A DNA stretch of 60,506 nucleotides from the NCBI GenBank assembly GCA_964470645.1, contig CAYYDP010000002.1, positions 1 through 60,506 of the forward strand, read 5' to 3'. The translations under genes and the position numbers were made by a program. The notes below the pieces were generated by a model that made no database searches, was not told the DNA's origin, and saw only the letters and a program-made list of their open reading frames with translations. Shown piece after piece: positions 7,356 to 31,934 of the stretch. Origin of the DNA: an uncultured Gammaproteobacteria bacterium (lineage in GTDB: Bacteria; Patescibacteriota; Patescibacteriia; CAYYDP01). The number at the start of each line of letters is the position of its first letter. Positions within the stretch are counted from its first letter, which is position 1.

Positions 7356-7503
7356 GTCATTGCGAGTGCATCCGAAGCAATCTTCCGCCGTCTCCTCCTT
7401 TTAAGATAAGAGGGGGTTGGGAGGAGTTATGAAGTTTGACGCGACAACCGCAAATGCAAACATTTGAAGATTGCTTCACTCACTCTGATTCGTTCGCAAT
7501 GAC
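7356..7503. repeat. MITE-like imperfect palindrome between convergent T1 and ksgA
   Basis: Terminal inverted repeats are gtcattgcga (7356-7365) and tcgcaatgac (7494-7503). An inner 12-bp pair is gaagcaatcttc (7374-7385) and gaagattgcttc (7466-7477). It encloses one copy of the GC-rich hairpin element (7388-7427). Confidence 0.7.
7388..7427 (-). repeat. GC-rich hairpin element, intergenic copy
   Basis: Sequence ccgtctcctcctt ttaagat aagaggggg ttgggaggagt has the same architecture and orientation as the intragenic copies at 8101, 12841 and 31634. Confidence 0.6.
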
Positions 7504-7506
7504 AAG

Positions 7507-8400
7507 CTATTTTGATTTTATGGCATCAGCCAATTTCACCCACTCTTCAAATTTCAAATTCTCCGAACGCAGATCGGGATCGATTCCTGACTGTTTTAAT
7601 AATGCTTCTGCCTGGCTTGGTTCGCTTCGCAAAAACGCAGCCAAGGTGTTGCGAAGTTTTTTGCGTCTGTTCGCGAAACACGCCTTTACAATTCTGATAA
7701 AATCTTCTTCTTGAATACCACGCTCCCGAAGCAACTTTGCTTTTGAATACATTTCACCCAGCGTAATCTTCACCAACGCGCTGTCAACTTTTGGCTGCGG
7801 TCTAAACGCGGTTTTTGGAACATACGCGAGCAACTCAACGCGAGCGCGCAACTGAGCAATGATCGTAAGAATTCCCTCACTCCCGTCTTTCCCAATCAAA
7901 CGTTCGGCAACTTCTTTTTGAATCATGAGAATTGCTTCCGTTGGTTGGGTTTCAATCGGTGAAAACAGGATATCTTGAACAATGGGCTTGGTAATGTAAT
8001 ACGGAATATTACCAAAAATCTTATAGGGTTTTGAAATATGTTTTTTGAGTTCCGTGGACTCCCGCAAATAATCCCCTTGGATAATCTTCAGACGCGCTTC
8101 TCCCCTACTCTGTCTCCCCCTTGGCAAGGGGGAGATGAAAGAGGGGGTCTTGACTTGATTCAAGAATTTGACCATTCTCTGGTCCTTTTCAACACTCCAC
8201 ACTTCTCTCACCTTCTCCACCAACGGCAGTGTAATCACCCCAAGTCCAGGACCAATTTCCAGTACAACGTCATCTTTTGAGAACTGGTCGAGAATAAAAT
8301 CAACCGTCAAATCATCAATCAAAAAATTCTGCCCCAGAGATTTCGTGGCAATGATTCCTTCTCGCGTCGCGAGTTTCAAAAGTTCAAGTGGATGGATCAT
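7507..8400 (-). CDS. rsmA: 16S rRNA (adenine1518/1519-N6)-dimethyltransferase
   Basis: Motifs GQNFLIDD and VLEIGPGLGVITLPL are present. It contains an in-frame insertion (TPSFISPLPRGRQSRGE) encoded by the hairpin element at 8101-8148. Confidence 0.9.
   Translation of the reverse strand: MIHPLELLKLATREGIIATKSLGQNFLIDDLTVDFILDQFSKDDVVLEIGPGLGVITLPLVEKVREVWSVEKDQRMVKFLNQVKTPSFISPLPRGRQSRGEARLKIIQGDYLRESTELKKHISKPYKIFGNIPYYITKPIVQDILFSPIETQPTEAILMIQKEVAERLIGKDGSEGILTIIAQLRARVELLAYVPKTAFRPQPKVDSALVKITLGEMYSKAKLLRERGIQEEDFIRIVKACFANRRKKLRNTLAAFLRSEPSQAEALLKQSGIDPDLRSENLKFEEWVKLADAIKSK
8101..8148 (-). repeat. GC-rich hairpin element inserted in frame in ksgA
   Basis: Sequence is tcccctactctg + tctccccctt ggc aagggggaga (10-bp stem) + tgaaagagggggt. 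Confidence 0.8.
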
Positions 8401-8403
8401 ACG

Positions 8404-9159
8404 TCACTTGTATTGCTTACTAATACTCCACAACGTGTCAAAAAAAGACTTTTGCGTTTCGAAAAAATCTCTGCTCTCAATAATCAACGCGTAACCTTCG
8501 CCTTTTGTGGAAATCACCCCCACTTTGTAATCATACAACTGCATGAAAATTTTGAGTACTGTTGTTCTCGGGGCTATCCGAACTTCTCTAAGTTCAGAAT
8601 TATTTTTCGAAGGATGCAGAAATTCAAGCACATCATTATCGTCTTTCACAATTCCATAAGCAAAGATACCCCGTTTCACGCGCTCCTCAACAAATGTTTT
8701 GTTGAAATCGTTCACTCTCAAAATTGTATAATATTCCTTCATATCTCCCACGTAATATACTTCTTTTGAGGTACAGGAAACAGGGTCCCAAGCCGCTTCT
8801 TGAATCCCCTTCGTCCCGTGAAAATATTGAATCTTGGGTTTCGCGGGGAAAGCTGAGAACAGTGAGTTGAGTTGAGGCAAAATTTCCTTTGCCAATTCTT
8901 CCTTTTCTTTTACCAGATCACGAATTCGTTTTGGTGGATTGGCAACAAAGTAATGATGGTTGCTTTCATAAATTTCTGTAATCAACGATTTGCGCAATAA
9001 AAAACTTAGGTTGTCATAAACAGTCGTCCGCTTTACTCCAGCCTTTTTTGCAATTTCAATCACCGTTCCCTTTCCAAGCTCCAAACAGGCAAGATAAATT
9101 CTTGCTCGGTTTTCTTCAATTCCCAATTCTTGCAGCTGCTGTTCTAATAATTGATGCAT
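8404..9159 (-). CDS. TrmB-like regulator, paralog T2
   Basis: The wHTH is IEENRARIYLACLELGKGTVIEIAKKAGVKRTTVYDNLSFL. Its stop lies 3 nt from the ksgA ATG. Confidence 0.8.
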   Translation of the reverse strand: MHQLLEQQLQELGIEENRARIYLACLELGKGTVIEIAKKAGVKRTTVYDNLSFLLRKSLITEIYESNHHYFVANPPKRIRDLVKEKEELAKEILPQLNSLFSAFPAKPKIQYFHGTKGIQEAAWDPVSCTSKEVYYVGDMKEYYTILRVNDFNKTFVEERVKRGIFAYGIVKDDNDVLEFLHPSKNNSELREVRIAPRTTVLKIFMQLYDYKVGVISTKGEGYALIIESRDFFETQKSFFDTLWSISKQYK

Positions 9160-9267
9160 ACTGTTTAATGTCGTTGTCAGATGACATCATCAATAGCATA
9201 AAAGTACCATAAATAAACTATAAAATCAATTCTCTTTATGAAGGGGCTAAAATCGAGTCGAATACAG

Positions 9268-9296
9268 TTGACCTACATTTTAATAATAATTATTGT
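9268..9296 (+). promoter_or_regulatory. Sigma70-like promoter for P1
   Basis: TTGACC (9268-9273), a 17-nt spacer, then TATTGT (9291-9296). The TTG start of the track ORF at 9293 sits inside this -10 box. Confidence 0.5.
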
Positions 9297-9325
9297 GTTC
9301 AAAACAAGTAACTACCGCTGCCCCT

Positions 9326-10486
9326 ATGGTGCCAATATCTAAAACAAAGCTTTTCATCGCTGGATGTATCATTCTAGTTGGTTTAGCGTGGTTGACTCTC
9401 ATGATCCCATTTGAACATGGAGGCAAACCAAAACAACCCGACATCATTAAGGTGGGTGTCATTTTGCCTCTGACAGGAAATCTTGCGTCAATTGGCGTCC
9501 CAGGTAAGAACGCACTTGAACTCGCGTTTAACAGGATTAACCAACAGCAAACAGACTTTCGCTACGAAGTGATATATGAAGACTCAAAAGGGAGCCCGAA
9601 AGACGGCGTCACCGCTGCTCAAAAATTGCTTTCAGTTGACAAGGCACAAGTGGTCTTTGCAACGCTCTCCAGTGTGAGCCTTGCGATCGCACCGATCATC
9701 CAAGAGCGCAATGCACTATTATTTGCATCAGCAATCTCCACCGATCTGCTCAAGGAAGGAGACGGGATTTTTCGGTTTTTCCCGTCCACCCAAAATGAAG
9801 TTGCGGTATGGCTCGACAGGATCAAAAGTAAAAACTACAAACGAGTAGCTATGCTCTACATGAATGCCGAATTTTCTCTTGAGGAAAAGAAACAGCTTGA
9901 GGCGAGTTTACCAAATGACGTAATGTTTATTGCCGAATCATTCGAGGCGAATAGTCAGGATTTACGGACGCAGCTTACAAAGTTAAAACAATCGGATCCA
10001 GATGTGATTGTTATCTCAGGAATAGGTTCAAATTACGTCTCTTTAATGAATCAACTCAACGATCTTAACATCTCGCCCGCGGTTATTGGCGATTTCGATT
10101 TCGCCCTTTCAATAGCACGAAATGCTGCAAGAAAATCCGATCAAGGTCTCTCTCTGTTTGACGGTGTAGAGTTCGCTATGATTAACATTGATTCCACTTC
10201 ATCAGTAACGCAAGATCTCATAAAACGTTACCGTGAACGATATCGCGATCCAGAGTACGACATCTTAAACGAGTCAGAGGCGCTCTTTGCATATGACGCC
10301 GCGAATCTTCTCAATGAACGGGCGCAAAAGATTGGCGTGTTCGACATTAGCAAACTCAAGGACCAGTTACAAAACATAACACAATATTCCGGGGTGAGCG
10401 GCAACATCAAAATAACGAATCGTTCAGCCGATATTCCTTTAGTTCTCGCAAGATATCGAAACGGAGAAATTGAAATTGTTAAATAA
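9326..10486 (+). CDS. Membrane-anchored periplasmic-binding-protein type 1 (LivK/branched-chain amino acid SBP-like), P1
   Basis: An N-terminal TM segment is followed by IKVGVILPLTGNLASIGVPGKNALELAF and VIYEDSKGSPKDGV, typical of the Leu/Ile/Val-binding family. No lipobox cysteine is present. Confidence 0.8.
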   Translation: MVPISKTKLFIAGCIILVGLAWLTLMIPFEHGGKPKQPDIIKVGVILPLTGNLASIGVPGKNALELAFNRINQQQTDFRYEVIYEDSKGSPKDGVTAAQKLLSVDKAQVVFATLSSVSLAIAPIIQERNALLFASAISTDLLKEGDGIFRFFPSTQNEVAVWLDRIKSKNYKRVAMLYMNAEFSLEEKKQLEASLPNDVMFIAESFEANSQDLRTQLTKLKQSDPDVIVISGIGSNYVSLMNQLNDLNISPAVIGDFDFALSIARNAARKSDQGLSLFDGVEFAMINIDSTSSVTQDLIKRYRERYRDPEYDILNESEALFAYDAANLLNERAQKIGVFDISKLKDQLQNITQYSGVSGNIKITNRSADIPLVLARYRNGEIEIVK

Positions 10487-10487
10487 T

Positions 10488-10567
10488 AAAAAATTCTGCC
10501 CCAGAGCCTTCTTGGTAATAATCCCTTCGTGAGTTGCACGTTTCAATAATTCAATTGGATGGATCAT
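10488..10567 (-). repeat. Duplicated ksgA 5' terminus (gene fragment)
   Basis: These 80 nt align with 8321-8400 (the intact ksgA start) at roughly 80 percent identity by eye, including the ATG (10565-10567). The fragment begins right after the P1 stop and ends 1 nt before the T3 stop. Confidence 0.85.
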
Positions 10568-10568
10568 A

Positions 10569-11315
10569 CTATTTCCCAACTGCCTCCCACATGATATGAA
10601 ACATTGTGCGGAATAAATTCGCGATTGTGTGACTTTTGATTCTCATTACCACTTTTTCTTTTGGATTTGAATATACGATCACGGTATCATCATATGTTTT
10701 CCAGTACGACTCGACGGTATGTTGTTTGGGATAAAAACGCATTTCACGTAAATACTTTGTATCGCTATTTTTATGAAGACGAGTAAAGTCAGACTCATTG
10801 GCGAGCATATACAAAAATATTTTGTTTCTCACGCGTTCCTTCATATACACATCCAAATCATATTCCCTCCCAATAATTTCCTGGAGTACATCAATATTCC
10901 CAAAATCAAACATGGTCTTGTTTTTTGCAAATAAACTTTGCTCCGTCAACTCACGAAATTGCTCAAGTGTATAATGCACCTCCACTTGAGCATTGTTTTT
11001 TTTCGTTCCATATTTCAAATCATCAAGAAGATCTTGAAGACTTAATTCCATGTGGCGATACTGACGGCGTTTTTTCGCGACAATATTCATGAGGGCTTCA
11101 GGCGCTGACAAGCGATACTTGTTAGCTCTACTTTTCAAGTCGTCTACAATAACTCCCTTGGCTTTCAATTCAGTTAAAAAACGAAACAAGGTGCTTTTTG
11201 GCAACCCGGTTTCTCGCATGAGCTCCATTGAGTTCGCTGATTGTCGTTGAATGAGTATCTCAATGATACGCTCCTCCTCTGATCGCAATCCAATGTCTTG
11301 AAGGGATAGTTTCAT
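10569..11315 (-). CDS. TrmB-like regulator, paralog T3
   Basis: The wHTH is ANSMELMRETGLPKSTLFRFLTELKAKGVIV. Length and C-terminal domain match the other paralogs. Confidence 0.7.
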   Translation of the reverse strand: MKLSLQDIGLRSEEERIIEILIQRQSANSMELMRETGLPKSTLFRFLTELKAKGVIVDDLKSRANKYRLSAPEALMNIVAKKRRQYRHMELSLQDLLDDLKYGTKKNNAQVEVHYTLEQFRELTEQSLFAKNKTMFDFGNIDVLQEIIGREYDLDVYMKERVRNKIFLYMLANESDFTRLHKNSDTKYLREMRFYPKQHTVESYWKTYDDTVIVYSNPKEKVVMRIKSHTIANLFRTMFHIMWEAVGK

Positions 11316-11435
11316 AGTCTCATGTTTAAGACTACTAAAGCGTAGCTTTTTTCCTTCATTTTAGCAAGACATGAAGATGGACATTCCCTTTTAGGACTAA
11401 TGAGCTAAAGTAACAATCGTATTATTCAACATCAT

Positions 11436-12329
11436 ATGGTTAATCCAAAAAACATCCGCGTTATTGTTACTGGCTGTGGGTATAAACCACTACAGCGAGA
11501 ATTTTGTGACCATCTTTCCGGACTGCCAACCCATTCAGAAATCATTTTAAATGGAATTCGGTGTAAATTAAATATCGGAGCGGCAATTGCGTGCACACTA
11601 TCCCAAAACGGATATATAGTTCACATGATATCAAAAACAGAAAAATCGCTCCTGAATCTCAAACAAGAATTTTGCAGTCGCTTTCACTGTTTACCAGACA
11701 CCATCGAGTACAGCGCATTCGATCTGCTGGATTCTGATCAAGTTAATAACTTCGTGGTTGATCTTCCAAAAGATAAACCAATCTATTGGGTGCAATCCAT
11801 TGGTTTGAGTGCGGGGAGTTATCAAGTGAAGGACGATAACCCATACCTCCCCATTGAGGACATTGATGCCGAGCTCATTGAGGCTGAATCTCGAACTCTG
11901 CTTCGAGGAACTCACCTTCTTGCGAAGAAGCTTGTTCCCTTATTTCGAAAACAAAAGGAGACGAGAGTTGTTATCATCACATCTCTTAGCGCAATACGCA
12001 GTTACGATATTGGTGCGACCCACTGTGCGTCAAAAGCGGCTTTGGATACGTATACTGAAGTTCTCCGTCTTGCGTTAAGTAAGGAGCATATCTTTGTCAC
12101 AACAATCCGACCTGGTATTGTAGATACTGGCATGTATGACCACCCAGCTGTGATCGCAGCGGTGAAACACGTTGGTGCAGAGTATGGCTGGAGCTATACA
12201 GATAACCAAATTCCACTTATCACTCCGCTTGCGATCGGAAAGCTTGTAAGAGAAGTTCTTTCATCAGAAGCCCACATCACCTCCATCAACCTGGTTGCCC
12301 GCGGCCAATGGCCGCACGAAGGGTCGTAG
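11436..12329 (+). CDS. Divergent short-chain dehydrogenase/reductase-like protein
   Basis: A Rossmann start VIVTGCGYKP and the segment SLSAIRSYDIGATHCASKAALDTY are present. The usual YxxxK tyrosine position reads H. Confidence 0.5.
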   Translation: MVNPKNIRVIVTGCGYKPLQREFCDHLSGLPTHSEIILNGIRCKLNIGAAIACTLSQNGYIVHMISKTEKSLLNLKQEFCSRFHCLPDTIEYSAFDLLDSDQVNNFVVDLPKDKPIYWVQSIGLSAGSYQVKDDNPYLPIEDIDAELIEAESRTLLRGTHLLAKKLVPLFRKQKETRVVIITSLSAIRSYDIGATHCASKAALDTYTEVLRLALSKEHIFVTTIRPGIVDTGMYDHPAVIAAVKHVGAEYGWSYTDNQIPLITPLAIGKLVREVLSSEAHITSINLVARGQWPHEGS

Positions 12330-12363
12330 CGACTATCTCATCGACCAGTTACGATTCAAAAAT

Positions 12364-13191
12364 CTAATCGCATTTACTTCGATATATCGTAATATCGAAG
12401 TATGCTAGCTCTATCTTCTTCAACCCAAGATACCACTTCCGTTTCTTTTCTGGAAATTTTTCGATTGCATATCGGAGCATGGTTCGGGGCATACGGTGGG
12501 CATGTTTATTTAGAAATGATTCTAGACTTCTCACATCCTTCTTCCCCACTTCCCGGAGCATCCACCCAACGGCTTTGTGAATGAGATCATGTTCGTCGTT
12601 CAATAATACATTCGCGATGTTGATCGTATCGTCAAATTGTCCTTTTTGGATTAACGCGTTAGTTGAAACCATAGCAATCCTTCGCTCCCACAGATTTTCC
12701 GATCTTGCAAGACGGAACAGAACTTTCCGATCTTTCTGTTTAAGTAAATAATCACCAAGAATACATGGCGCTGACGTATCCACCAAATCCCAATTATTAA
12801 CGTACTTTGTATGCTTCAAATAGAACGTTACTAGTTCCGCTCTCCCTCTGTCCTCCCCTTTCGAAGGGGAGGTGAAGGAGGGGTATCGAATGTTCGATTT
12901 TCCATTTTTCATTTTCCTTTTTCCATAATCCTCATATTTCATCGCCAACATTTCAAGCGCCACAAACCGTTCTTCGTGAATCTTGCTTTTGAGTAGCGTT
13001 TGAATCTCTTCAAGGGTTATTTCTTTGTAATATCTCTTCGCCACCTTCCGTTGTTCTGGTACCTTGATTCCCAAAAATCTATCCCCTTCTCCGTACTCCC
13101 CTTTTCCCGTCTTAAAAAACCACGCCGAAGCGTGAGCGCGTTTTGAATTAATAAGTTTCCGAAGTTCCCGTTTAAGCATCGCGAGGTACAT
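12364..13191 (-). CDS. DNA alkylation repair protein (AlkD-like HEAT-repeat family)
   Basis: The N-terminus KRAHASAWFFKTGKGEYGEGDRFLGIKVPEQRKVAKRY and NNWDLVDTSAP are typical of the DNA_alkylation family. It carries an in-frame hairpin element. Confidence 0.7.
   Translation of the reverse strand: MYLAMLKRELRKLINSKRAHASAWFFKTGKGEYGEGDRFLGIKVPEQRKVAKRYYKEITLEEIQTLLKSKIHEERFVALEMLAMKYEDYGKRKMKNGKSNIRYPSFTSPSKGEDRGRAELVTFYLKHTKYVNNWDLVDTSAPCILGDYLLKQKDRKVLFRLARSENLWERRIAMVSTNALIQKGQFDDTINIANVLLNDEHDLIHKAVGWMLREVGKKDVRSLESFLNKHAHRMPRTMLRYAIEKFPEKKRKWYLGLKKIELAYFDITIYRSKCD
12841..12884 (-). repeat. GC-rich hairpin element inserted in frame in the AlkD-like gene
   Basis: Sequence is tctccctctgt + cctcccctt tcg aaggggagg (9-bp stem) + tgaaggaggggt. 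It encodes YPSFTSPSKGEDRGRAE. Confidence 0.8.
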
Positions 13192-13210
13192 ACGAATTAT
13201 ATCGAACGAG

Positions 13211-13942
13211 TTAAAATCGATCCCATGCGATCTGCAATAATGTTCTCATTGACTCCGCAATCTCTTTATCTTCAACGATGACGGCAATTTTATTACTAAA
13301 CGACATAAGGGCTACCTTGTTGGCGTATACGATGATTTCATTGGGGATCCGATACTTTTGATGCGGAAAAAATTTCATTTTCCGGGATGCCCGCTCGTCA
13401 AAGTTATGCTCCTCCACGCTCTCCGGGGTGTCGGGGCTTAATGATCTCACGGTAATATTATTTTTCTTTCGATTCCGATACGTTCGATGCAAAAAATCCC
13501 TTCCGGTTGCTTCATATAAATCCTTCACGGAAGAAACTGATACTACCTGACAATTTTTCGTTGATGTAAAATCTTCATACACATGCCGAAGTCCCGACAG
13601 CCCTTCGTAGAAGGAAACTTTGGGTTTAACGCCAGTATGTTTTCCGAGAAAAAGAAGATGTTTCAATTGTTTACGAAATTCTTCAACATTCATCACTACA
13701 TACTGAAATAAGCGGTCAGGGCTTAAGACCGAAAACGATTTTATTCCCTCTCTCTCTACGAACGAGCCGTATCCCTTTTTTACTAACCTTTTACACGTAT
13801 CGTATGTGGTAATCCGATTCAAACGGGCGGCGGTAGCGATTTCAGAAACCCTTGTCTCCCCAATGTGGAGCACAGCGAGGTATACCCTCGATTCCTTATC
13901 ACTAAAACCTAAACGGACGAAAATTTCTTCCAAATTGTTCAT
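13211..13942 (-). CDS. TrmB-like regulator, paralog T4
   Basis: The wHTH is FSDKESRVYLAVLHIGETRVSEIATAARLNRITTYDTCKRLVKKG. Confidence 0.8.
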   Translation of the reverse strand: MNNLEEIFVRLGFSDKESRVYLAVLHIGETRVSEIATAARLNRITTYDTCKRLVKKGYGSFVEREGIKSFSVLSPDRLFQYVVMNVEEFRKQLKHLLFLGKHTGVKPKVSFYEGLSGLRHVYEDFTSTKNCQVVSVSSVKDLYEATGRDFLHRTYRNRKKNNITVRSLSPDTPESVEEHNFDERASRKMKFFPHQKYRIPNEIIVYANKVALMSFSNKIAVIVEDKEIAESMRTLLQIAWDRF

Positions 13943-13952
13943 GATGTTTTGT

Positions 13953-14043
13953 TGTAATTATTTTCTACAATTATGATACAGAATGTCGTCTTTTATTTCA
14001 AATAAGAGATTAAATTTATATTAGTCTGTAATAATTTTCTACA
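13953..14043. promoter_or_regulatory. Divergent T4/methyltransferase control region with two 17-nt direct repeats
   Basis: Repeats are tgtaattattttctaca (13953-13969) and tgtaataattttctaca (14027-14043), with 16 of 17 identical. They are candidate operator sites. Confidence 0.4.
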
Positions 14044-14049
14044 GGATTT

Positions 14050-14805
14050 ATGATTTATCTGACGAATATGACAAAAGAACACTTCGTTCACAAAACGGTG
14101 TACCGACGGTACTCGATTGATACTTCGGCCCTGCGTCTGGAAATAACACCGGATATTTTCCCCCCTTCCACAAATGGACTATTTCTTGCAAAACAGTTCA
14201 GTGTTCGAAAGGGGGAAACAGTTATTGACATCGGCACTGGCTCCGGTATTCTCGCAATTACGGCCGCAAAACGAGGTGGCATTGTGTATGCAACCGACCA
14301 GGATCCTAAAGCAATCCGAGTTGCGCAAAGAAACGCTCATCAAAATAACGTACTGATAAAATTTAAGGTTGGGAAGTACTTCGCAAATTTTAGAAGAAAG
14401 TTTGATGTGATTATTGCTAACCTCCCCCAGGAGATCATTCCATACGAATACCGAATAAACCTCGGAGATACTCTCGCAAAGACTATCGATGGCGGCACGC
14501 GGGGGAACCGACAAATGGTACAATTACTCAAGGTAGCGAAACAATGGATGCGACGAAAATCACGAATGTACTTTCTGGTTAATTCATCAACCGACTATAT
14601 TTCCACACTGAGTATCATGGTGAAAAATTATGATGCGCGCCTTATTGCATTCAGCACACAGCCTATGAAGGGGTTCGTGGATGCTCACATACATAAATTC
14701 GAAAGGCTCCATAAACATGGACTCATTCATATACTTAAAAAGAGAAATAGATGGTACTGTTGTATGTATCTGTTCGAGCTCATGTTAAAAAAGTCTGATT
14801 TATAA
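14050..14805 (+). CDS. Class I SAM-dependent methyltransferase
   Basis: It has SAM motif [21 protein letters not shown], then [10 protein letters not shown] and DVIIANLPQ. Confidence 0.75.
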
Positions 14806-14821
14806 AATTAGAACCCCCCAA

Positions 14822-14902
14822 CCTAAAAAACCACGCCGAAGCGTGAGCGCGTTTTGGATCGGCAAGATGGCGAAGTTCTTTTTTTAAAACGTTTAGCATC
14901 AT
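14822..14902 (-). repeat. Duplicated 5' terminus of the AlkD-like gene (gene fragment)
   Basis: It aligns with 13111-13191, sharing a 29-nt identical core taaaaaaccacgccgaagcgtgagcgcgttttg. It translates as MMLNVLKKELRHLADPKRAHASAWFF. It lies about 17 nt after the methyltransferase stop and 6 nt from the AbiEii stop. Confidence 0.85.
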
Positions 14903-14908
14903 ATCCCT

Positions 14909-21372: not shown

Positions 21373-21374
21373 AC

Positions 21375-24490: not shown

Positions 24491-24525
24491 GTATACATCA
24501 TTTTCACTCAGAACAGTATCGTTCT

Positions 24526-25065
24526 ATGAAAGCTCAAAATCTCGCAACCTTCGCTTCTGGATGTTTTTGGTGCACGGAAGCGATATTCCAAAACCTCAAA
24601 GGAGTCGAACGCGTAATCTCAGGGTACACCGGAGGAGATATTCCAAATCCAACCTATGAGCAAGTCTGCTCTGGTTCAACCAACCATGCGGAAGCGGTAC
24701 AGATTACGTTTGATCCCAATGTGATTTCATATGAACAATTACTCGATGTCTTTTTTCACACCCATAATCCAACAACATTGAATCGTCAGGGAAATGACGT
24801 GGGGACGCAATACCGCTCCTCAATCTTTTATCACTCAGAAGAACAGCGGGAGGCCGCTGAGAAGATGAAACAGAAATTCAACGAAGCACAAGAATTTGAT
24901 AATCCTATCGTGACTGGAATTGTCCCCTTCTCCGCCTTTTATCCCGTCGAGCAGTATCATCAAAACTATTACAAAGAAAACTCCTCAAAACCCTACTGTC
25001 AAATTGTCATCTCTCCAAAACTAAAACACTTCCGCGAACGATACGCTGAGCTATTGAAGAAATGA
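24526..25065 (+). CDS. msrA: Peptide methionine (S)-S-oxide reductase
   Basis: ATFASGCFWCTEAIF and GYTGGDIPNPTYEQVCSGSTNHAEAV are present. ATG at 24526 is preferred. Confidence 0.9.
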   Translation: MKAQNLATFASGCFWCTEAIFQNLKGVERVISGYTGGDIPNPTYEQVCSGSTNHAEAVQITFDPNVISYEQLLDVFFHTHNPTTLNRQGNDVGTQYRSSIFYHSEEQREAAEKMKQKFNEAQEFDNPIVTGIVPFSAFYPVEQYHQNYYKENSSKPYCQIVISPKLKHFRERYAELLKK

Positions 25066-25179
25066 TAATTATTCAAATATTCAAACGAATCTTTAAACAA
25101 CGCATTCGTGCTTTTACCCAATCCGCAAAATCACTTCCTCGGTCGACATAACATCGCAGTAACATTGACTTACAATCAT

Positions 25180-25899
25180 TTACTTCCACGCTATAAAACC
25201 CACATGAGGAGGGTCAGTGAGATATTTTTTCCAAAATACGGCACCGAATCTTTTGATTCCTTCTGGATTTGGTTTCAACATTCTCCAAGAAACGTTTGAA
25301 AAACCACCATCATGCGCTCCTGTTTCATAATCACTTTGACTAAAGTTTTTACTCGTAGCAGAACATAAAAATTTGTTGTTTCTATCAAAAAATTCAACCT
25401 TAACTTTTTTGTTTTTCAGAGGTGTATACCGACGGCGGTGCCAGAACTCGTTAAAATGGGAAAAATCTGGGTTTCTAACAACGGAAATGAATACTCCTCC
25501 ATTCTTCAAAAGTTTGCAGGTTGAGGAGAAAAAGAGAGCCAAATATCTTCGCGAAGGCGCATACGGAAGCGACATAACCGACACCGCGTCATCGAATTTC
25601 CCCGTGCTTTTGAACTTCCGTGGATCTGAGATGAAATAATCAATCCCAAACGGATGTTGGTGCTCCCTCTGTTTCGCAATGGCTATCTGTTTCGATGAAC
25701 GATCATATCCAACAACACTCGCCCCTTTCGAGGCGAGAAGGCGGGCTAATGTTCCCTCGCCACATCCAACGTCGAGAGCATGTTTGTCGTTGGCGGCGCC
25801 GATTTCATCAAGAATAAAAGGATATGATACGTACCGTAAGACAGGATCATCGTTCACGAACGATGCATATTGATGAACGATTGGATCATATCGGTTCAT
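25180..25899 (-). CDS. Class I SAM-dependent methyltransferase
   Basis: It carries motif I ALDVGCGEGTLARLLASKGASVVGYDRS. Confidence 0.75.
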   Translation of the reverse strand: MNRYDPIVHQYASFVNDDPVLRYVSYPFILDEIGAANDKHALDVGCGEGTLARLLASKGASVVGYDRSSKQIAIAKQREHQHPFGIDYFISDPRKFKSTGKFDDAVSVMSLPYAPSRRYLALFFSSTCKLLKNGGVFISVVRNPDFSHFNEFWHRRRYTPLKNKKVKVEFFDRNNKFLCSATSKNFSQSDYETGAHDGGFSNVSWRMLKPNPEGIKRFGAVFWKKYLTDPPHVGFIAWK

Positions 25900-25900
25900 A

Positions 25901-27049
25901 TCATTTTTCTAGTGGTATGATGGTTCCGTTTCTTACGGTCTTCAACGAATATTCTCTCACGCCGTCGCCGTTTTGATCGATAGTAATGGGACCCGAGATG
26001 CCTTCATATTGCTTCACCTGATAAAGATATTTTCTGATTCGTTCAATATCAAGACCGTTTTCCGCAATTGCGTCTGTGATGAGATATACTGCGTCGGCGC
26101 TTTCTGCGGTATAAAATCCGTAGGGCAATTCTTGAGTACCATAGGCCGCATTATATCTCTCGATAAATCGTTTTGTTTTTTGGTTTTCCGTATCGAAGTC
26201 GGGCAACGCGAGAATAAACCCTTCATAGAGATTCGGAATTTGGCGAATATTGACGGGGATTCCAGCAACATCATTGCCGAATAACTGGGCTTTGATCCCG
26301 ATTTCATTAACTTGTTTCATAAAATTCAGAGCTGCGTCGGGACTTTGGGCAGAGAGAAAGAGCGCGTCAATATGTTCGGCCTTTGCTTTTGTTAAAAGCG
26401 TTCTAAAGTCAGTAACTCCCGGGGCATACCCTTCATACAACTCGATCAAACCTCCCAATCGGACAAATTCTTCCTTGAGTCTTTCGGCAATAGGACTGGC
26501 GTAATCGGTTTGTTCGTAGATAATCGCCATTGTTTCTAGCCCCAAGGTGTTCCGCGCAACATCTGCTATTAAATGAGATTGCACAATTGAAACGGGAGAT
26601 GTGCGAAAGACATAATCCCCCATGGGTGTTAGTGCTGGACTCGTGGTGATGGAGGCGAGCATGATGACGTTATTTTTCTCTGCGATTGGAGCAATCGCAA
26701 TACTTTCAGGAGTGCAGTGGCCTCCAAGGATGATGTTTACATTATCAATGTTGATGAGTTTATTTGCCGCGTTGGTCGCCGCGCTTGAATTACATTTTCC
26801 ATCCTCAGCGATAAGCTCGATCTGAGTTCCATTGATTCCACCGTTGGCGTTGATCTCTTCCGCCGCAAGTCGAGCAGCTTCGTATGAGCCGTATTTGGCT
26901 ACTGGTCCGGACATTGCGCCGATAAAGCCGAGTTTGATCCGTTCCGTAGGTCCTTGCTTGTAGGGGTCTGCAAGCAGTACAACCGCTATCAGAAAAAAGA
27001 TTACGATAATAGCCAACAAGATTCGATGACGAAAAGTGGCATTAGTCAT
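25901..27049 (-). CDS. Membrane-anchored LivK-type solute-binding protein, P3
   Basis: A TM anchor is followed by IKLGFIGAMSGPVAKYGSYEAARLAAEEINANGGINGTQIELIAEDGKC. ATG at 27049 (MTNATFRH) is preferred. Confidence 0.85.
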   Translation of the reverse strand: MTNATFRHRILLAIIVIFFLIAVVLLADPYKQGPTERIKLGFIGAMSGPVAKYGSYEAARLAAEEINANGGINGTQIELIAEDGKCNSSAATNAANKLINIDNVNIILGGHCTPESIAIAPIAEKNNVIMLASITTSPALTPMGDYVFRTSPVSIVQSHLIADVARNTLGLETMAIIYEQTDYASPIAERLKEEFVRLGGLIELYEGYAPGVTDFRTLLTKAKAEHIDALFLSAQSPDAALNFMKQVNEIGIKAQLFGNDVAGIPVNIRQIPNLYEGFILALPDFDTENQKTKRFIERYNAAYGTQELPYGFYTAESADAVYLITDAIAENGLDIERIRKYLYQVKQYEGISGPITIDQNGDGVREYSLKTVRNGTIIPLEK

Positions 27050-27097
27050 AGAGTGTAATGGATGAGTTGCGCTTACTTTACTCGCTGACGATAATCT

Positions 27098-27127
27098 TTG
27101 ACATGGGTACATGCTATTTGCTTATAT
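27098..27127 (+). promoter_or_regulatory. Sigma70-like promoter for T6
   Basis: TTGACA (27098-27103), a 17-18-nt spacer, then cTTATAT (27121-27127). The TTG start of the track ORF is this -35 box. Confidence 0.5.
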
Positions 27128-27157
27128 TTGCTTTATTTTTTAAAGTCATCTAAAATA

Positions 27158-27907
27158 ATGACGATATCTATGTCAACATACGAAACTTTAAAAAAGGTAC
27201 TCGCGAACCTTGATGTTAACGAAGCGCAAGCTAGTGTGTACTTAAAGTTGTTGGAGCTTGGAGAAGCGAATTACTCGACTCTCGCCCGTTCGACGGGAAT
27301 TAAGCGAACTTCTTTGTATCCGCTTATTGAGAAAATGGAGCGACGCGGTCTGGTGGAGCGTGTGATTGACCATCGGGTACTTCGAGCAATCCAGCCCCAT
27401 ACTGTTTTTGAAAATCTTCAGGATAACAACCTCGCATTCTACCATTCTCTTGGGTTGTTTCGTGAAATCATAAAAACACCTTCATTGCCCACGAAAGTAC
27501 GATTCTATAATGGAAGACGTGGAGTCCAAAAATTACTGCTTGACGAATTGGAAGAGTACCGCAGATCAAAAGAAAAGCAACTCCGAGTCATTGGATCTGC
27601 GCTCGTGTTTCAAAAAGATCCGATCTTTTTTCGTCAATACCAGCAGAAAAGAAAAGAAATCGGTGTTCTTACGAAACTCATCGCGCATCATGATGTGAAG
27701 CCGTATGAACATGAGTACAAACATCTCAACGTTCAAGTGAAATTTTTTACTCACGAAAATAAGTTTGGAAGAGGAAGGATCTCATGTACCCAACGACGTC
27801 TAACCGTCATCAATCTTTTAGGGGATGAAAACGGAATTATTGTTGAAAGCCGTGGGATAGCAGAAGTGTTCGCGTGGTTTTTTGATGCGACGTGGAAGTT
27901 GTTGTGA
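27158..27907 (+). CDS. TrmB-like regulator, paralog T6
   Basis: The wHTH is VNEAQASVYLKLLELGEANYSTLARSTGIKRTSLYPLIEKMERRGLV. It is divergent from P3. Confidence 0.8.
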   Translation: MTISMSTYETLKKVLANLDVNEAQASVYLKLLELGEANYSTLARSTGIKRTSLYPLIEKMERRGLVERVIDHRVLRAIQPHTVFENLQDNNLAFYHSLGLFREIIKTPSLPTKVRFYNGRRGVQKLLLDELEEYRRSKEKQLRVIGSALVFQKDPIFFRQYQQKRKEIGVLTKLIAHHDVKPYEHEYKHLNVQVKFFTHENKFGRGRISCTQRRLTVINLLGDENGIIVESRGIAEVFAWFFDATWKLL

Positions 27908-28082
27908 GGCGTGGTTTGATTTCGTGTCGAATCTCACACAATTACCGAGATGTTCCGTCAATTCTTTTTCTTCGCCTGGCAGTTGTTGAAAGATGTTTGA
28001 TGGTGTGTAGCCACGGATTTGAATGTGTCTTGATGTGATGCAGAACATTGAAACGATGTCCTTTTTATGGTAAACTATCTTC

Positions 28083-28388
28083 ATGAAAGAAGTCCATATT
28101 CCTCAAGAATTGAATCGTTTTTTATGGGATACGAAGCCGGGTGATTTGGATACACAAACGCACAAATCGTTTATCATCGAACGGTTGTTAGAGGAAGGAA
28201 ACCGCCAGGCCGTACATTGGGTTTTAAACGAGTTCTCGCCAAATGATATAGAGGATGTTGTCAGCTCATCTCGTCGAATCCGCTTGAAAACCGCGTTATT
28301 CTGGAAAAATCGCCTAGGGATAACCAAACCCATTCTATGCATGCAGAAACCCTCTACCCCGACACCCGCCACGCCCTGGAGACATTAG
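28083..28388 (+). CDS. Putative antitoxin partner of the AbiEii-like nucleotidyltransferase
   Basis: It is a small ORF immediately upstream of, and overlapping, the NTase gene. The motif LWDTKPGDLDTQTHKSFIIERLLEEGN recurs in such pairs, from memory. The 3' end is uncertain. Confidence 0.45.
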   Translation: MKEVHIPQELNRFLWDTKPGDLDTQTHKSFIIERLLEEGNRQAVHWVLNEFSPNDIEDVVSSSRRIRLKTALFWKNRLGITKPILCMQKPSTPTPATPWRH

Positions 28389-28957
28389 CGAAGGAGAAAA
28401 TGGTTGACGGACTTTATCTCGCTGGGGGAACCGCAACAGCACTTCGGCTTGGACATCGTAAGAGCATTGATCTTGACTGGTTCTCGTCAAAACCATTTTC
28501 AGTTGATGAATTGCTTCAGAAGTTAATTCGCGTAGCCCCATTCGACGTGGCGATCAAAGAAACAAAAACACTCACAGGTCAATGGCTATCTACCCGAGTT
28601 GAATTTTTCGAATACCCATATCCTCTTCTTGAAACAACTGAGACATGGAACGGTGTCAATATAGCCGGATTGCAAGACATCGCGTTGATGAAGCTCATCG
28701 CCATCTCCGATCGCGGGAGCAAAAAAGACTTCATTGATCTTTTCGAGATTTGCAAGACCGCCCTGACATTGGAGTCGCTCTTCTCGCTTCTCCCGAAAAA
28801 GTTTCCTGGTATCAACTTCGATCCATATCATTTGCTTAAATCTCTCGTCTATTTTGAAGATGCGGAACGTGATCCAAATCCCGATCTGATCAAAAACATC
28901 TTATGGAAAACGGTCAAAGAGTTCTTTCTTGATCAAGCAAGGCTGATTAAGTTATAA
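28337..28957 (+). CDS. AbiEii/DUF1814-like nucleotidyltransferase (short form)
   Basis: LYLAGGTATALRLGHRKSIDLDWFS resembles the AbiEii NTase motif. Confidence 0.6.
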   Translation: MHAETLYPDTRHALETLAKEKMVDGLYLAGGTATALRLGHRKSIDLDWFSSKPFSVDELLQKLIRVAPFDVAIKETKTLTGQWLSTRVEFFEYPYPLLETTETWNGVNIAGLQDIALMKLIAISDRGSKKDFIDLFEICKTALTLESLFSLLPKKFPGINFDPYHLLKSLVYFEDAERDPNPDLIKNILWKTVKEFFLDQARLIKL

Positions 28958-28985
28958 CTAATTCGCATCTGCCTGTTTGAATTAC

Positions 28986-29047
28986 CAAATTGTCATCTCT
29001 CCAAAACTAAAACACTTCCGCGAACGATACGCGGAACTGATTCGTTA
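28986..29047 (+). repeat. Duplicated msrA 3' terminus (gene fragment)
   Basis: Positions 28986-29032 are identical (47 of 47) to 25000-25046. The similarity continues to a stop codon (…RYAELIR* versus …RYAELLKK*). Confidence 0.9.
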
Positions 29048-29063
29048 ATATCTACTAAGAGCG

Positions 29064-29450
29064 CTATGGGAGAAGAGATTGAACGCACGCGAAGATTTCA
29101 CTTGGGGTCGTATTGATTTTTGTGAGATATCGTGAAACGTGAAAAGTGTTCGCGCGGTCAACATACGACCCATCGTCCACATTGGTCAGCATAATCACCG
29201 GAACGCTCGCTCCCCACGGATCGTTTCTCAATTTCTCCAACACCTCAAGCCCACTCATCCGGGGCATGATAATGTCCAACAAAATAATGTCGGGATGCTT
29301 CGAGAACGCGAGTTCCAGCCCCTGAACTCCAACGATGGCCGCAATTGCCTCAAGCCCTTCCAGCATGAATTTTTCCACAAGCATTTTCAAAATCGTTTGT
29401 TCGTCCTCAATAATGAGGACACATTTTTTTGTTGGTTTTTTTGATGTCAT
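29064..29450 (-). CDS. Stand-alone response-regulator receiver domain (CheY-like)
   Basis: VLIIEDE, DIILLDIIMPRMSGLEVLEKLR and VPVIMLT are present. ATG at 29450 avoids overlap with the MFS gene. Confidence 0.8.
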   Translation of the reverse strand: MTSKKPTKKCVLIIEDEQTILKMLVEKFMLEGLEAIAAIVGVQGLELAFSKHPDIILLDIIMPRMSGLEVLEKLRNDPWGASVPVIMLTNVDDGSYVDRANTFHVSRYLTKINTTPSEIFACVQSLLP

Positions 29451-29497
29451 AAACGGGTTAAGAAACATTCGATCAGCTACATGGCAGTACTTACGCA

Positions 29498-30661
29498 TTA
29501 TAGCACGCCGTACAACAACGCTGCCAGTCCGGCAAACACGAACAAAGGAATGTATGATCCCGTCAGATGCCACAAGAACATACACACAAGAATTGCGAGT
29601 ATTTTACCGATGATCAACGCCATTTCAAATACCATAACACGGTTCATAACCGAGTTCGCACGCGCCTCTTCGTAGGTAATGGAGACTAACGGTACGCTCA
29701 CAATATTTTTTGTGACTCGTGAAAGCGTGTCAACAACAAACACACCAACCGGGGTTTGCGCGAGGAAGCGTAAAAACCACACAAATGCGTAAAGTACGGA
29801 TCCTGATTTAAGAATGTGGCGCTTGTCTTTCGCGGCATCCGTTTGTTTTCCAATATAAAGAGTTACCAAGAGCGTCACAAACGTTGCAGCGGCAACAACA
29901 ACACCGACGTTAAAAAACGACTTCACGGTGATATATACAAACGTCGGCCACACAACAAGTACGACGAATTCTTCAGCATACCCAAACGACGCGAAGGTTG
30001 CGCGCCAATACTCCTTGGTAAACAGTCGTTTGTAGGATTCAAAATAATTAAATGGTGCGGGTGTAAATTGTTCGGGGACCATGTACAGCGGAATATTTGA
30101 AACCAAAATCAATACCGAAACAATCACGAACAATGTTTTAAAACCAAGAACGGTGATAATGACGCCGCTCAAAAATGGTCCAACGATATACACAATGGAT
30201 GAAATCACAACGAGATTTGAAATTTCTCTGCTTTCTTCGGATTGTTCAGAAAAACGAGCGAAATCGGCGTGGTATCCGGGCCAATAAAACGTTTTTTGAA
30301 TGGCGTAACACACCGCGGCAACAGCGATCCAAATGAGATTGTGATTTGCCGCCGCGAAAAATGAGAGATATAGCCCGATTAAAAACGGCGAGCTGATCAT
30401 GATTGACTTTTCATACCCGTATCGTTTAGCGAACCGCGCGCCAAACGGTATGAGCACGAAATACAACGCATACACCGCAAGATAGAAAAGTAATATCTGG
30501 GAAAGATCGAAGCCGATCGAGAGAAGATAAATAGGCTCAAAAATCATGACCATGGCGAGCGCCAAATCCATGATGGCTACCGATTCATAGAGTCCTTTCA
30601 CTTGTTTTGAAAGCGAGTGAGGGAACAGAGCCGATAAATTATACGAAAGACGACGAAACAT
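29498..30661 (-). CDS. MFS-type transporter
   Basis: About 12 hydrophobic segments are present. ATG at 30661 is preferred over GTG at 30679. Confidence 0.6.
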   Translation of the reverse strand: MFRRLSYNLSALFPHSLSKQVKGLYESVAIMDLALAMVMIFEPIYLLSIGFDLSQILLFYLAVYALYFVLIPFGARFAKRYGYEKSIMISSPFLIGLYLSFFAAANHNLIWIAVAAVCYAIQKTFYWPGYHADFARFSEQSEESREISNLVVISSIVYIVGPFLSGVIITVLGFKTLFVIVSVLILVSNIPLYMVPEQFTPAPFNYFESYKRLFTKEYWRATFASFGYAEEFVVLVVWPTFVYITVKSFFNVGVVVAAATFVTLLVTLYIGKQTDAAKDKRHILKSGSVLYAFVWFLRFLAQTPVGVFVVDTLSRVTKNIVSVPLVSITYEEARANSVMNRVMVFEMALIIGKILAILVCMFLWHLTGSYIPLFVFAGLAALLYGVL

Positions 30662-30689
30662 GAATATAGTATACACCACGATCCAAAGT

Positions 30690-31934
30690 TCAGCTACCCA
30701 ACCTCAGTCCTGGATCACGTTCAAGTCTTGAGACGTTTTTCACAAATTGTTTTCGCTTTACCCTATGAAATGCCGCAATCGCGATCATCGCGGCATTATC
30801 GCCAAGCAACTTTTTATCGATTGGATAAACGACCTCTATTTCAAATGGTTTCATTGCTTTACGAATTTCAGAACGGACAAGTTTATTCGCAACCACACCA
30901 CCACCGAGCAACAGCCTTGTAACCTGTAACTTGTAACCTGTAACTTGTAACTTTTTAATAGCCAATGTGGTTTTCTGTACCAAATGTTCAACAGCGGCTC
31001 GTTGAAATGAGGCACATAAATCACAAATTAGTTTTTTGGTGAATTTTCCTTTGGGAGAGATCTTTTGCAACGCGTACAATACTGAAGTTTTGAGCCCAGA
31101 ATAACTGAAGTCACATGTTTTAGACTTTTCGAGCGGCACAGGGAATGGATATTTGTGGGGATTCCCCTCTTTAGCAAGCTCTTCCACAATCGGTCCTCCC
31201 GGGTATCCAAGACTGAGCATTTTCGCAACCTTATCAAACGCCTCACCAACTGCATCATCGAGTGTTTCACCAATGATTTCATATTTTCCATGGTTTTTCA
31301 TAAGCACGAGTTCCGTGTGACCACCTGAGATGAGAAGACACAAGACTGGAAAATCCGAAGCACGGAGCACGAAATCCAAATTGGACTTGAGTTTTGAATT
31401 ATTGGTTTGTTTCGAATTTCGAATTTCGAATTTCGAAATTACTCCAACTCGTTTTGCGAAGTTGGAGTAGATGTGTCCTTCCATATGATTCACTGCAACC
31501 AAGGGTTTTTTATACAACCTTGCGAGTTCTTTTGATTTCTCAACGCCGATTTGTAACGCTGGCGCAAGCCCCGGCCCGTAAGTTACAGCGAAGACATCTA
31601 CATCTTGTAACCCGAAACTTGTAGCTTGTAACTTACCCTGCCCCCTCCTTACGAAGGAGGGGATTGAGGAGGTGCTTTTGGATTTGTAACTTGATATTTG
31701 TTTGTGATTTGGGATTTGTAATTTGGAAATTGAAATATTGGCGCGTTTGACTGCTTCCTGGATCACCGCGTCAATACGTTCCTGGTGCGCCCTCATGGCG
31801 ATCATTGGAACAACGCCTCCATATTTCTTATGAAGTTCCACCTGACTTGAAATGACATTGGAAAGAATCACGTCATTCCAAGTAATCGCAACCGAGGTCT
31901 CGTCGCACGATGTGTCTATTGCTAAAATCAACAT
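30690..31934 (-). CDS. tsaD: tRNA N6-adenosine threonylcarbamoyltransferase
   Basis: MLILAIDTSCDETS, VTYGPGLAPALQIGV, VNHMEGHIY and GGGVVANKLVR are present. It is about 75 aa longer than usual because of three in-frame repeat insertions. Confidence 0.9.
   Translation of the reverse strand: MLILAIDTSCDETSVAITWNDVILSNVISSQVELHKKYGGVVPMIAMRAHQERIDAVIQEAVKRANISISKLQIPNHKQISSYKSKSTSSIPSFVRRGQGKLQATSFGLQDVDVFAVTYGPGLAPALQIGVEKSKELARLYKKPLVAVNHMEGHIYSNFAKRVGVISKFEIRNSKQTNNSKLKSNLDFVLRASDFPVLCLLISGGHTELVLMKNHGKYEIIGETLDDAVGEAFDKVAKMLSLGYPGGPIVEELAKEGNPHKYPFPVPLEKSKTCDFSYSGLKTSVLYALQKISPKGKFTKKLICDLCASFQRAAVEHLVQKTTLAIKKLQVTGYKLQVTRLLLGGGVVANKLVRSEIRKAMKPFEIEVVYPIDKKLLGDNAAMIAIAAFHRVKRKQFVKNVSRLERDPGLRLGS
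30916..30953 (-). repeat. Heptanucleotide tandem repeat (CTTGTAA/CCTGTAA x5) inside tsaD
   Basis: Plus strand reads cttgtaa cctgtaa cttgtaa cctgtaa cttgtaa ctt. It encodes KLQVTGYKLQVTR. Confidence 0.9.
31410..31437 (-). repeat. Heptanucleotide tandem repeat TTTCGAA x4 inside tsaD
   Basis: Plus strand reads tttcgaa x4. It encodes FEIRNSK. Confidence 0.9.
31604..31740 (-). repeat. Composite in-frame insertion in tsaD: heptamer repeats + GC-rich hairpin element + degenerate heptamers
   Basis: The first part is cttgtaa cccgaaa cttgtag cttgtaa (31604-31631). The hairpin element follows: taccctg + cccctcctt acg aaggagggg + attgaggaggtg (31634-31674). The last part is 7-nt periodic gatttgt aacttga tatttgt ... 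(31681-31738). Confidence 0.85.

Follow-up and report, generated by a model that had tools for sequence, protein, structure and literature searches.

What is a short G/C-rich hairpin repeat doing, in frame, inside conserved housekeeping genes? The question is raised by contig CAYYDP010000002.1 (GCA_964470645.1) of an uncultured candidate-phyla-type bacterium, of which positions 1-60,506 of the + strand were analyzed (the window). An original prediction, made from the letters of this DNA, held that four copies of one hairpin architecture are present, three of them inserted without loss of frame in ksgA, an AlkD-like gene and tsaD, in the manner of the Rickettsia palindromic elements (RPEs). Three real copies were found in the window (ksgA 8101-8148, AlkD-like gene 12840-12885, tsaD 31634-31674). 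We take them to be members of a widespread group of ~35-48 nt G/C-rich triplex-type repeats, dispersed at the level of DNA and tolerated in frame in surface loops, a reading to which we would give a probability of about 0.6.

In each of the three copies a pyrimidine and a purine arm form a perfect hairpin of 9-10 bp around a 3-nt loop. A search of the window for perfect hairpins revealed a shape common to all of them, in which the 5′ pyrimidine arm ends in TT and the 3′ purine arm begins with AA. Beyond each hairpin, after a loop of 3-4 nt, a second tract of purines gives the purine arm in reversed order and not as its reverse complement. The mirror pairs are AAGGGGGAGA-tgaa-AGAGGGGGT, AAGGGGAGG-tgaa-GGAGGGGTA and AAGGAGGGG-att-GAGGAGGT. 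The right arm, at first listed simply as a family feature, is indeed present; it is not an arbitrary flank, being a mirror repeat of the stem arm that covaries with it across hundreds of copies. The copies and their parts are as follows.

8101-8148, + strand: triplex-type repeat in ksgA; 9 triads, 0 mismatches (loops 5 and 4)
8101-8109, + strand: ksgA copy, degenerate left pyrimidine tract
8113-8135, + strand: ksgA copy, hairpin TCTCCCCCTT-GGC-AAGGGGGAGA
8136-8139, + strand: ksgA copy, loop TGAA
8140-8148, + strand: ksgA copy, mirror purine tract AGAGGGGGT
12840-12885, + strand: triplex-type repeat in the AlkD-like gene; 9 triads, 0 mismatches (loops 3 and 4)
12840-12849, + strand: AlkD-like copy, left pyrimidine tract
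12852-12872, + strand: AlkD-like copy, hairpin CCTCCCCTT-TCG-AAGGGGAGG
12873-12876, + strand: AlkD-like copy, loop TGAA
12877-12885, + strand: AlkD-like copy, mirror purine tract GGAGGGGTA
31634-31674, + strand: triplex-type repeat in tsaD; 8 triads, 1 mismatch (loops 5 and 3)
31642-31662, + strand: tsaD copy, hairpin CCCCTCCTT-ACG-AAGGAGGGG
31663-31665, + strand: tsaD copy, loop ATT
31666-31673, + strand: tsaD copy, imperfect mirror purine tract GAGGAGGT

A scan for triplex-type elements, defined as a pyrimidine stem, a purine stem and an antiparallel third stem (stems of at least 7, loops of 1-7, at most one mismatch) under the triad pairing rules G.G-C and A/T.A-T, returned exactly three loci in the 60.5 kb, all on the + strand. 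The mean in 200 first-order shuffles of the window was 0.02, and three or more loci were seen in 0/200; the similarity first proposed for four copies is thus significant for three of them. A relaxed scan for pyrimidine-arm hairpins likewise gave 3 loci, compared to 0.34 expected from shuffles. In sequence all three copies are class II intrastrand triplex motifs, in which a pyrimidine domain is followed by a purine and then by a reverse-Hoogsteen domain, the complement reading as class IV; stems of 6-15 nt, loops of 1-6 nt and at most one mismatch define the ITxF criteria (PMC4666352). By way of its degenerate left arm the ksgA copy has a second match, of 9 triads and 1 mismatch, on the - strand.

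The copies are 57-64% GC in a window of ~43% GC. Folding, computed as Watson-Crick DNA folding only, gave -15.3 kcal/mol (z -3.3) for the ksgA copy, -12.7 kcal/mol (z -3.2) for the AlkD-like copy and -10.1 kcal/mol (z -3.0) for the tsaD copy. A covariance model trained on 47 family members, with the three window copies among the training rows, scored them at 54.4, 46.2 and 46.1 bits, respectively, a range of 46-54 bits for members of its own training set. In Rfam no family reached its gathering score for the window copies, the best being whalefall-1, at 16 bits where the threshold is 37; at E-value thresholds there was nothing beyond weak whalefall-1 hits and noise of the microRNA type. Weak whalefall-1 matches (11-16 bits) fall on the - strand at 8084-8138 and 12839-12875, and probably reflect merely a common C/G-rich hairpin character.

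The remaining copy of the original four is doubtful.

7386-7427, no strand assigned: doubtful fourth copy, intergenic, with convergent genes on either side, inside a larger palindrome (~7358-7502)

It retains just the AACCCCCTCT tract (- strand) together with loose pyrimidine and purine tracts. The triplex-type scan gave no match at 7388-7427, the fold is no better than that of shuffles (z -0.68), and the covariance score of 16.5 bits (E ~0.1), while next-best in the window, is not significant. One shared architecture therefore holds for the ksgA, AlkD-like and tsaD copies and fails here, where a relic is possible. The long interrupted palindrome at 7358-7502, between the convergent TrmB-like gene and ksgA, pairs GAAGCAATCTTC with GAAGATTGCTTC and TCATTGCGA with TCGCAATGA; it could serve as a bidirectional terminator, or else represent some other element.

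The genes that carry the three copies are the following.

7507-8400, - strand: ksgA/rsmA (16S rRNA dimethyladenosine transferase), 297 aa, PF00398; insert at about residues 85-101
12364-13191, - strand: AlkD-like gene of the DNA_alkylation family, 275 aa, PF08713
30690-31934, - strand: tsaD, 414 aa, PF00814

All three copies lie inside intact - strand open reading frames (ORFs) and are read through in frame, as had been claimed. The peptides also are those originally stated: TPSFISPLPRGRQSRG from the ksgA copy, YPSFTSPSKGEDRGR from the AlkD-like copy and TSSIPSFVRRGQG from the tsaD copy, all on the - strand. They are missing from all aligned KsgA, TsaD and AlkD homologues, the closest of which are at 66-82% identity, so that the comparison of orthologues bears out their lineage specificity.

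In the window KsgA the insert reads FLNQVK-TPSFISPLPRGRQSRGE-ARLKII. In a homologue of 82% identity (L001) this site holds another insert, made of CAAGCTA heptamers around a GC hairpin, while homologues at 67% and 56% identity are 13 residues shorter there and remoter ones ~17 shorter. The structure model has a mean predicted local distance difference test score (pLDDT) of 93.4, and in it residues 84-103 form a coil, with block pLDDT of 74 and 49, between helix 74-83 and strand 104-108. A PLPKGEE-type insert occurs at another site in one KsgA homologue (P0012). An 82-nt direct repeat of 82% identity (8321-8402 and 10488-10569) places a second version of the ksgA 5′ end upstream of the TrmB-like gene (10569-11315), which suggests a partial duplication of the ksgA start.

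The insert of the AlkD-like protein is 23-25 residues long (DYGKRKMKNGKSNIRYPSFTSPSKG..) and consists of a heptamer array plus the triplex-type repeat; it is absent from 12/12 aligned homologues, the closest included. Compared with solved TsaD structures, the window TsaD has three insertions (residues 65-109, residues 160-195 and ~7 residues near 328-338), and the triplex-type repeat falls in the first. Long loops at this first site are confined to a three-member clade, and within it the motif is seen only in the window TsaD; relative L219 has GATTCAC heptamers and another core there. The TsaD model has a mean pLDDT of 89.1, with block values of 64/56/57 across the first insert and of 58/44/49 across the second. 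Thus the inserts of KsgA and TsaD, when placed on structural models as the original prediction had proposed, lie in low-confidence coils of otherwise confident folds. In TsaD of another candidate-phyla lineage (P0164, P0212) one repeat-derived peptide, SNRFRI.SG..K..KSGMTKQVQDD, is present at both insertion sites, so the same two loops take other repeat families in other lineages. No copy was found in the relatives L001, L002 and L219 (20 kb in all). Indels of 42-69 nt between the near-identical relatives L002 and L220 were ruled out as candidate insertions; they are NN scaffold gaps.

Two of the three copies are accompanied by tandem heptamers.

12893-12926, no strand assigned: heptamer array TTCCATT x4.9, adjoining the AlkD-like copy in the same in-frame insertion
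31604-31634, no strand assigned: heptamer array CTTGTAA-like x4.4, on one side of the tsaD copy
31701-31726, no strand assigned: heptamer array TTTGGGA-like x3.7, on the other side of the tsaD copy, in a wider heptamer-like region (~31680-31735)

Such embedding is true for the AlkD-like and tsaD copies, not for the ksgA copy. Further arrays are found at 1374-1403, 2211-2241, 30916-30953, 31410-31437, 58096-58122 and 58211-58230, and heptamers are in frame within ValRS, the AlkD-like gene, TsaD and a PfkB-type kinase. Four perfect tandem arrays were seen in the window, every one of period 7, with none at the other periods from 4 to 12 and none in shuffles. A second small repeat family, the GC hairpin CCCGC(C/T)TCG...CGAGGCG(G/A)G (CCCGCCTCG...CGAGGCGGG) flanked by CAAGCTA heptamers, is in frame in the PfkB-type kinase (58160-58230) and occupies the KsgA site of relative L001 (~2780-2850). 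A hairpin with an 11-bp stem, TTCCTGTTTAC-gata-GTAAACAGGAA at 2241-2266, adjoins the TTTCGGA heptamer array in ValRS. A constant tie between the triplex-type motif and heptamer arrays was considered and rejected outside the window lineage (2/155, 0/32 and 0/85). Elsewhere in the window a repeat of 41-96 nt ending in ...GAGATTCAGGRTGAGCATA is present in four to five copies (48148-48243, 50414-50454, 53767-53813, 54524-54619 and 57346-57441); it looks like the common 5′ ends of paralogous - strand genes.

Beyond the window the motif proved to be widespread, with many further copies in other genomes. In viral contigs, selected on the hairpin alone (pattern CYYCCCCTTNNNAAGGGGRRG), 69 stretches with 85 hairpins were found, and 68/85 have a Hoogsteen-compatible third tract (at most one mismatch) on one or both sides, the chance level being estimated at a few per cent. 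Where the arms are asymmetric, an exact mirror 7-mer lies no more than 9 nt away in 25/66 hairpins and a direct 7-mer in 2/66. The scan of reference genomes, with a pattern of flank plus hairpin in which the T positions were left free, yielded at least 120 matches in many phyla, with fewer than one chance match estimated under uniform base composition. Among the matches listed are Saccharibacteria, Parcubacteria, other Patescibacteria, many cyanobacteria, Planctomycetota, Nitrospirota, Poribacteria, Cellvibrio, Marinomonas, alphaproteobacteria and others, including isolate genomes (Oscillatoria PCC 10802, Fischerella PCC 9431, Nostoc paludosum, Marinomonas spartinae and a Prevotellaceae isolate). 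The element is thus not peculiar to the kind of genome represented by the window; cyanobacteria, Planctomycetota, Nitrospirota and Proteobacteria have it as well, and so do viral contigs.

Replication and polymerase errors generate direct or inverted repeats, not mirror repeats. Among the reference matches listed, the arm CTCCCCC is paired with the flank CCCCCTC in 39/39, CCTCCCC with CCCCTCC in 30/34, and a C7 arm with a C7 flank in 68/86. The arm CCCCTCC, which is of the tsaD type and absent from every search pattern, has its mirror CCTCCCC nearby in 11/17. There are four arm variants, each paired with its own mirror. We read this strict covariation as pointing to selection for, or a mechanistic need of, a three-stranded fold.

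Single genomes have their own consensus flanks around the motif. One viral contig (L066, IMGVR_UViG_3300032160_001195), which is GC-rich, has ten copies of CCCCCCCTT-CGC-AAGGGGGGG followed by cagggggggtcgggtgaa between 4070 and 11352 (~7 kb), several of them ~200-300 nt apart. In cyanobacteria the motif is followed by a conserved caagattt...tcccccc segment, and often also by a second, inverted motif (L096, L176, L178 and L153 from Nostoc and Kastovskya; L074, L088 and L177 from Microcoleus and relatives), so that here the motif seems to belong to a composite repeat of greater length. When metagenomes were scanned with the TTCA-loop subtype, 27 contigs of 36-62% GC were matched, and because of this spread the subtype was rejected as a marker of the window lineage.

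Is the in-frame position peculiar to the window? Ten cases in other organisms had their gene identities checked by Pfam. The motif is in frame in LeuRS (Microcoleus), AlaRS (Minisyncoccia), ValRS (Spechtbacteria) and UvrA (Nitrospirae), in the last between the ABC signature and Walker B, and also in a Mur ligase, QueA, DapF, a CCA-adding enzyme and a MiaB-like enzyme. Of the 121 listed elements, 59% were in stretches free of stops for 150 codons or more, compared to 85% of random positions; by this measure, rough in GC-rich genomes, the motif is depleted from coding sequence yet far from excluded.

These coding copies bear on the level at which the element acts. Elements in long ORFs with a flank on one side have the purine motif on the coding strand in 34 cases and the pyrimidine motif in 31 in genomes, and 13 versus 11 in viral contigs. 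An orientation fixed relative to transcription, which the first reading of the window had suggested, is rejected for other genomes by these counts; it stands for the three real copies, all pyrimidine-motif (class IV) on the coding strand, and has a chance probability of ~0.25. Chance probably accounts for the uniform orientation in the window, or else a link to strand asymmetry, the three genes all being on the - strand and the GC skew of the + strand being negative across most intervals of the window (cumulative -1.83). Unbiased orientation elsewhere points to a DNA-level element, and the use of all three reading frames across organisms speaks against both a conserved peptide and a signal in mRNA.

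It is possible to propose how such an element might behave. In single-stranded DNA a hairpin with a third strand in its major groove would be expected, and in duplex DNA the purine mirror repeat would constitute a classical H-DNA motif overlapping a cruciform motif. The repeats would have been inserted into, or have arisen within, variable surface loops of KsgA, the AlkD-like protein and TsaD, and would persist where the frame is kept, no stop falls in the frame used, and a short Pro/Ser/Gly/Arg/Lys-rich coil is tolerated by the fold or is neutral to it. The element may accordingly be pictured as a non-B-DNA-forming dispersed repeat tied to local sequence turnover, rather than as a protein motif or an mRNA signal.

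With respect to its spread, copying from existing copies through a trans-acting or a replication- or repair-linked process is the most likely route. The ksgA and AlkD-like copies share loop bases that are structurally unconstrained (TTCA, ACAGAG). Over 43 nt, loop bases included, the ksgA copy is identical to an element on a metagenome contig of 62% GC (L204, 57-100), the mirror tract of which is intact where the ksgA copy has two substitutions. Taken together with the consensus flanks of single genomes, these identities favor copying, possibly with horizontal transfer.

Several points weigh against this interpretation. There are only three copies within the window. No nucleotide-level pair of empty and filled sites was found, the closest relatives being at 66-82% protein identity, and neither a target-site duplication nor an associated enzyme was seen; for these reasons we infer insertion and mobility rather than observe them. 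The triplex fold of the window copies is a prediction from sequence, and on the coding strand it would require protonated cytosines. The copies behind the covariation counts are not independent events, and subfamily structure could inflate the counts. The fraction of elements within ORFs was taken from stretches without stops, an unreliable guide where genomes are GC-rich, and only ten cases have the Pfam check. Finally, the idea that the pyrimidine and purine tracts keep all six frames of the element free of stops was rejected, since a mean of 1.79 of 6 frames contain a stop compared to 1.70 in shuffles.

Could the element be actively mobile? An enzyme might recognize the hairpin or triplex once folded on single-stranded DNA, and copy or paste it, with phages carrying it across phyla and the in-frame copies being the survivors. 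The unconstrained loop bases common to window copies, the 43-nt identity with an element on a contig of 62% GC, the lineage-specific flanks within single genomes and the presence/absence differences between relatives would all be explained, as would the presence of the motif in 69 stretches of viral contigs, with ten copies inside 15 kb in one of them. On the other side, neither a transposase-like partner nor a target-site duplication or empty site was seen, a link to mobile elements was not found by the authors for the E. coli motif of this class (PMC4666352), viral contigs may contain host fragments, and sampling by pattern inflates sequence similarity. We regard active mobility as unlikely, though selfish mobility of the element is plausible. 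The broadest version, in which a ~40-nt motif defined by a triple helix would be a horizontally spreading, phage-carried mobile unit that inserts into essential genes of many phyla and, with heptamer arrays, remodels surface loops in candidate-phyla genomes, is equally doubtful. If true, it would place the motif among the smallest known mobile units.

Copying is dispensed with altogether if the motif arises repeatedly on the spot, by mutation or slippage in pyrimidine/purine or heptamer-rich loops and by convergence through the structural stability of the DNA. Low-complexity G/C tracts are easily generated, 2/3 copies are inside heptamer-array insertions, and relatives hold different repeat-derived sequences in the same loops. 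Against such an origin are the kinds of repeat that polymerase errors yield, which are inverted or direct and not mirror, the loop bases without structural role that are shared between copies and the 43-nt identity to a distant contig, and the heptamer association of just 2/155 outside the lineage. We consider local origin improbable.

Still less is to be said for a signal in mRNA, namely a pyrimidine-motif RNA triple helix or a stable hairpin that, along with an internal Shine-Dalgarno-like AAGGAGG, slows or regulates translation or stabilizes the transcript. Purine-motif triplexes do not form in RNA, but pyrimidine-type intrastrand triplexes are able to (PMC4666352), and it is the class IV orientation that the mRNA strand has in 3/3 window copies; the purine arms, moreover, resemble Shine-Dalgarno sequences. 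The even split of orientations elsewhere (34:31 and 13:11), the chance probability of the 3/3, the lack of an Rfam family match and the low pH required by a cytosine-rich third strand make this explanation very improbable.

The three peptides themselves were thought to be related, and might be selected protein features such as a common binding or localization motif. They are real and of a similar x-P-S-F... form in three proteins, and the inserts are kept in essential genes. The alignment is in part non-homologous: the frame in which the hairpin is read differs among the window copies, the outer pyrimidine tract is the source of 'PSF' in KsgA and AlkD, and 'IPSF' in TsaD is encoded by the hairpin arm. 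Together with the use of all three frames elsewhere, the coils of pLDDT 49-64, the absence of the peptides in close relatives, and the palindromic and mirror symmetry of the DNA, which selection on a peptide leaves unexplained, this makes a selected peptide hardly credible. An assembly artefact or chance low-complexity sequence, conceivable for error-prone G/C homopolymer-like tracts on a metagenome contig, can be dismissed in view of the shuffle controls, the frame kept in three genes, and the same motif in isolate genomes and many independent assemblies.

For 25 years intrastrand triplex motifs have been known as abundant, conserved repeats, described as intergenic. A triplex-type architecture that is read in frame within essential genes across widely differing bacteria, with a mirror covariation suggestive of selection for a triple-helical fold, offers a handle on how these motifs disperse. 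It offers another on how non-B DNA repeats may supply conserved proteins with new surface loops, above all where genomes are compact and have hardly any intergenic space. There is also a warning for annotation: where metagenomic proteins have Pro/Gly/Lys-rich inserts of ~12-17 residues, these may be repeat DNA.

How do dispersed triplex-type repeats compare with known systems? RPEs are hairpins ~100-150 bp long that fall into ten sequence families, with a conserved peptide encoded by each (PMC10969869), and it is by this description that the window elements are set apart from them. The likeness seen in the original prediction is a real one, for in both cases palindromic repeats are in frame in unrelated housekeeping genes, at sites compatible with the fold, and add lineage-specific peptides. 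In contrast to RPEs, the window elements are 41-48 nt long, have a third, mirror-repeat block, are read in differing frames and belong to a motif found in many phyla.

The repetitive extragenic palindromic (REP) sequences and REPINs, which are mobilized by RAYT, are also short dispersed hairpin repeats that sometimes occur as inverted pairs. However, the three copies have no consistent GTAG/CGTC tag, the window copies are intragenic where REPs are extragenic, and REPs are without a mirror block. No RAYT gene was seen, though no search aimed at one was made. Miniature inverted-repeat transposable elements have terminal inverted repeats and a target-site duplication, and are usually 50-400 bp long. 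The window copies are shorter than 50 nt and no boundary duplication is visible at them, the exact boundaries being blurred by the divergence of the relatives.

Small dispersed repeats of Nostoc are reportedly embedded in tandem heptamer (STRR) arrays, a description attributed to Elhai et al. 2008 (Genome Res 18:1484). These are very small hairpin repeats inside heptamer arrays, and the likeness to the window elements is a partial one, in that heptamer arrays flank the tsaD and AlkD copies and the second GC-hairpin family but not the ksgA copy. They differ in that the host group is another one, that the arrays and cores of the window are in frame in essential genes, and that outside the window lineage the triplex motif is not linked to heptamers (2/155).

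The closest likeness in architecture is to the intrastrand triplex motifs. The PIT elements are said to be the G/C-rich intrastrand triplex motifs of Hoyne and Maher 2000. In the motifs described by Holder et al. (2015; TM/ITxF classes; PMC4666352), of which the E. coli BoxC/TMECO is one, a pyrimidine stem, a loop of 3-6 nt, a purine stem, a loop of 3-4 nt and a mirror purine stem follow one another as in the window copies; they too are ~36 nt long, G/C-rich, dispersed, sometimes two-sided (palindromic), abundant in cyanobacteria and found in locally unstable sequence. The TMECO consensus, CCCTCNCCC-N3-6-GGGNGAGGG-N3-GGGNGAGGG, folds as a stable triplex by circular dichroism and nuclear magnetic resonance (PMC4666352). 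TMECO is highly conserved, is present in 262 proteobacterial genomes and marks loci rearranged between strains, which fits the hypervariable KsgA and TsaD loops among relatives of the window. It is reported as always intergenic, was not found on phages or plasmids, and has no known function or mobility, its authors having found no link to mobile elements; triplex motifs of the G/C-rich kind are reported as very abundant in Microcystis, Anabaena and Nostoc (PMC4666352). In direct comparison the window arms CCTCCCCTT, CTCCCCCTT and CCCCTCCTT do not fit the TMECO consensus. Unlike TMECO, moreover, the window copies are inside ORFs, the host is of candidate-phyla type, and the motif type occurs in 69 viral-contig stretches. 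In the literature searched no report of in-frame triplex motifs in coding genes was found, which is not proof of absence. The repeats of the window are members of a known structural class in an undescribed setting: in coding sequence, in frame, in essential genes, across phyla and on viral contigs.

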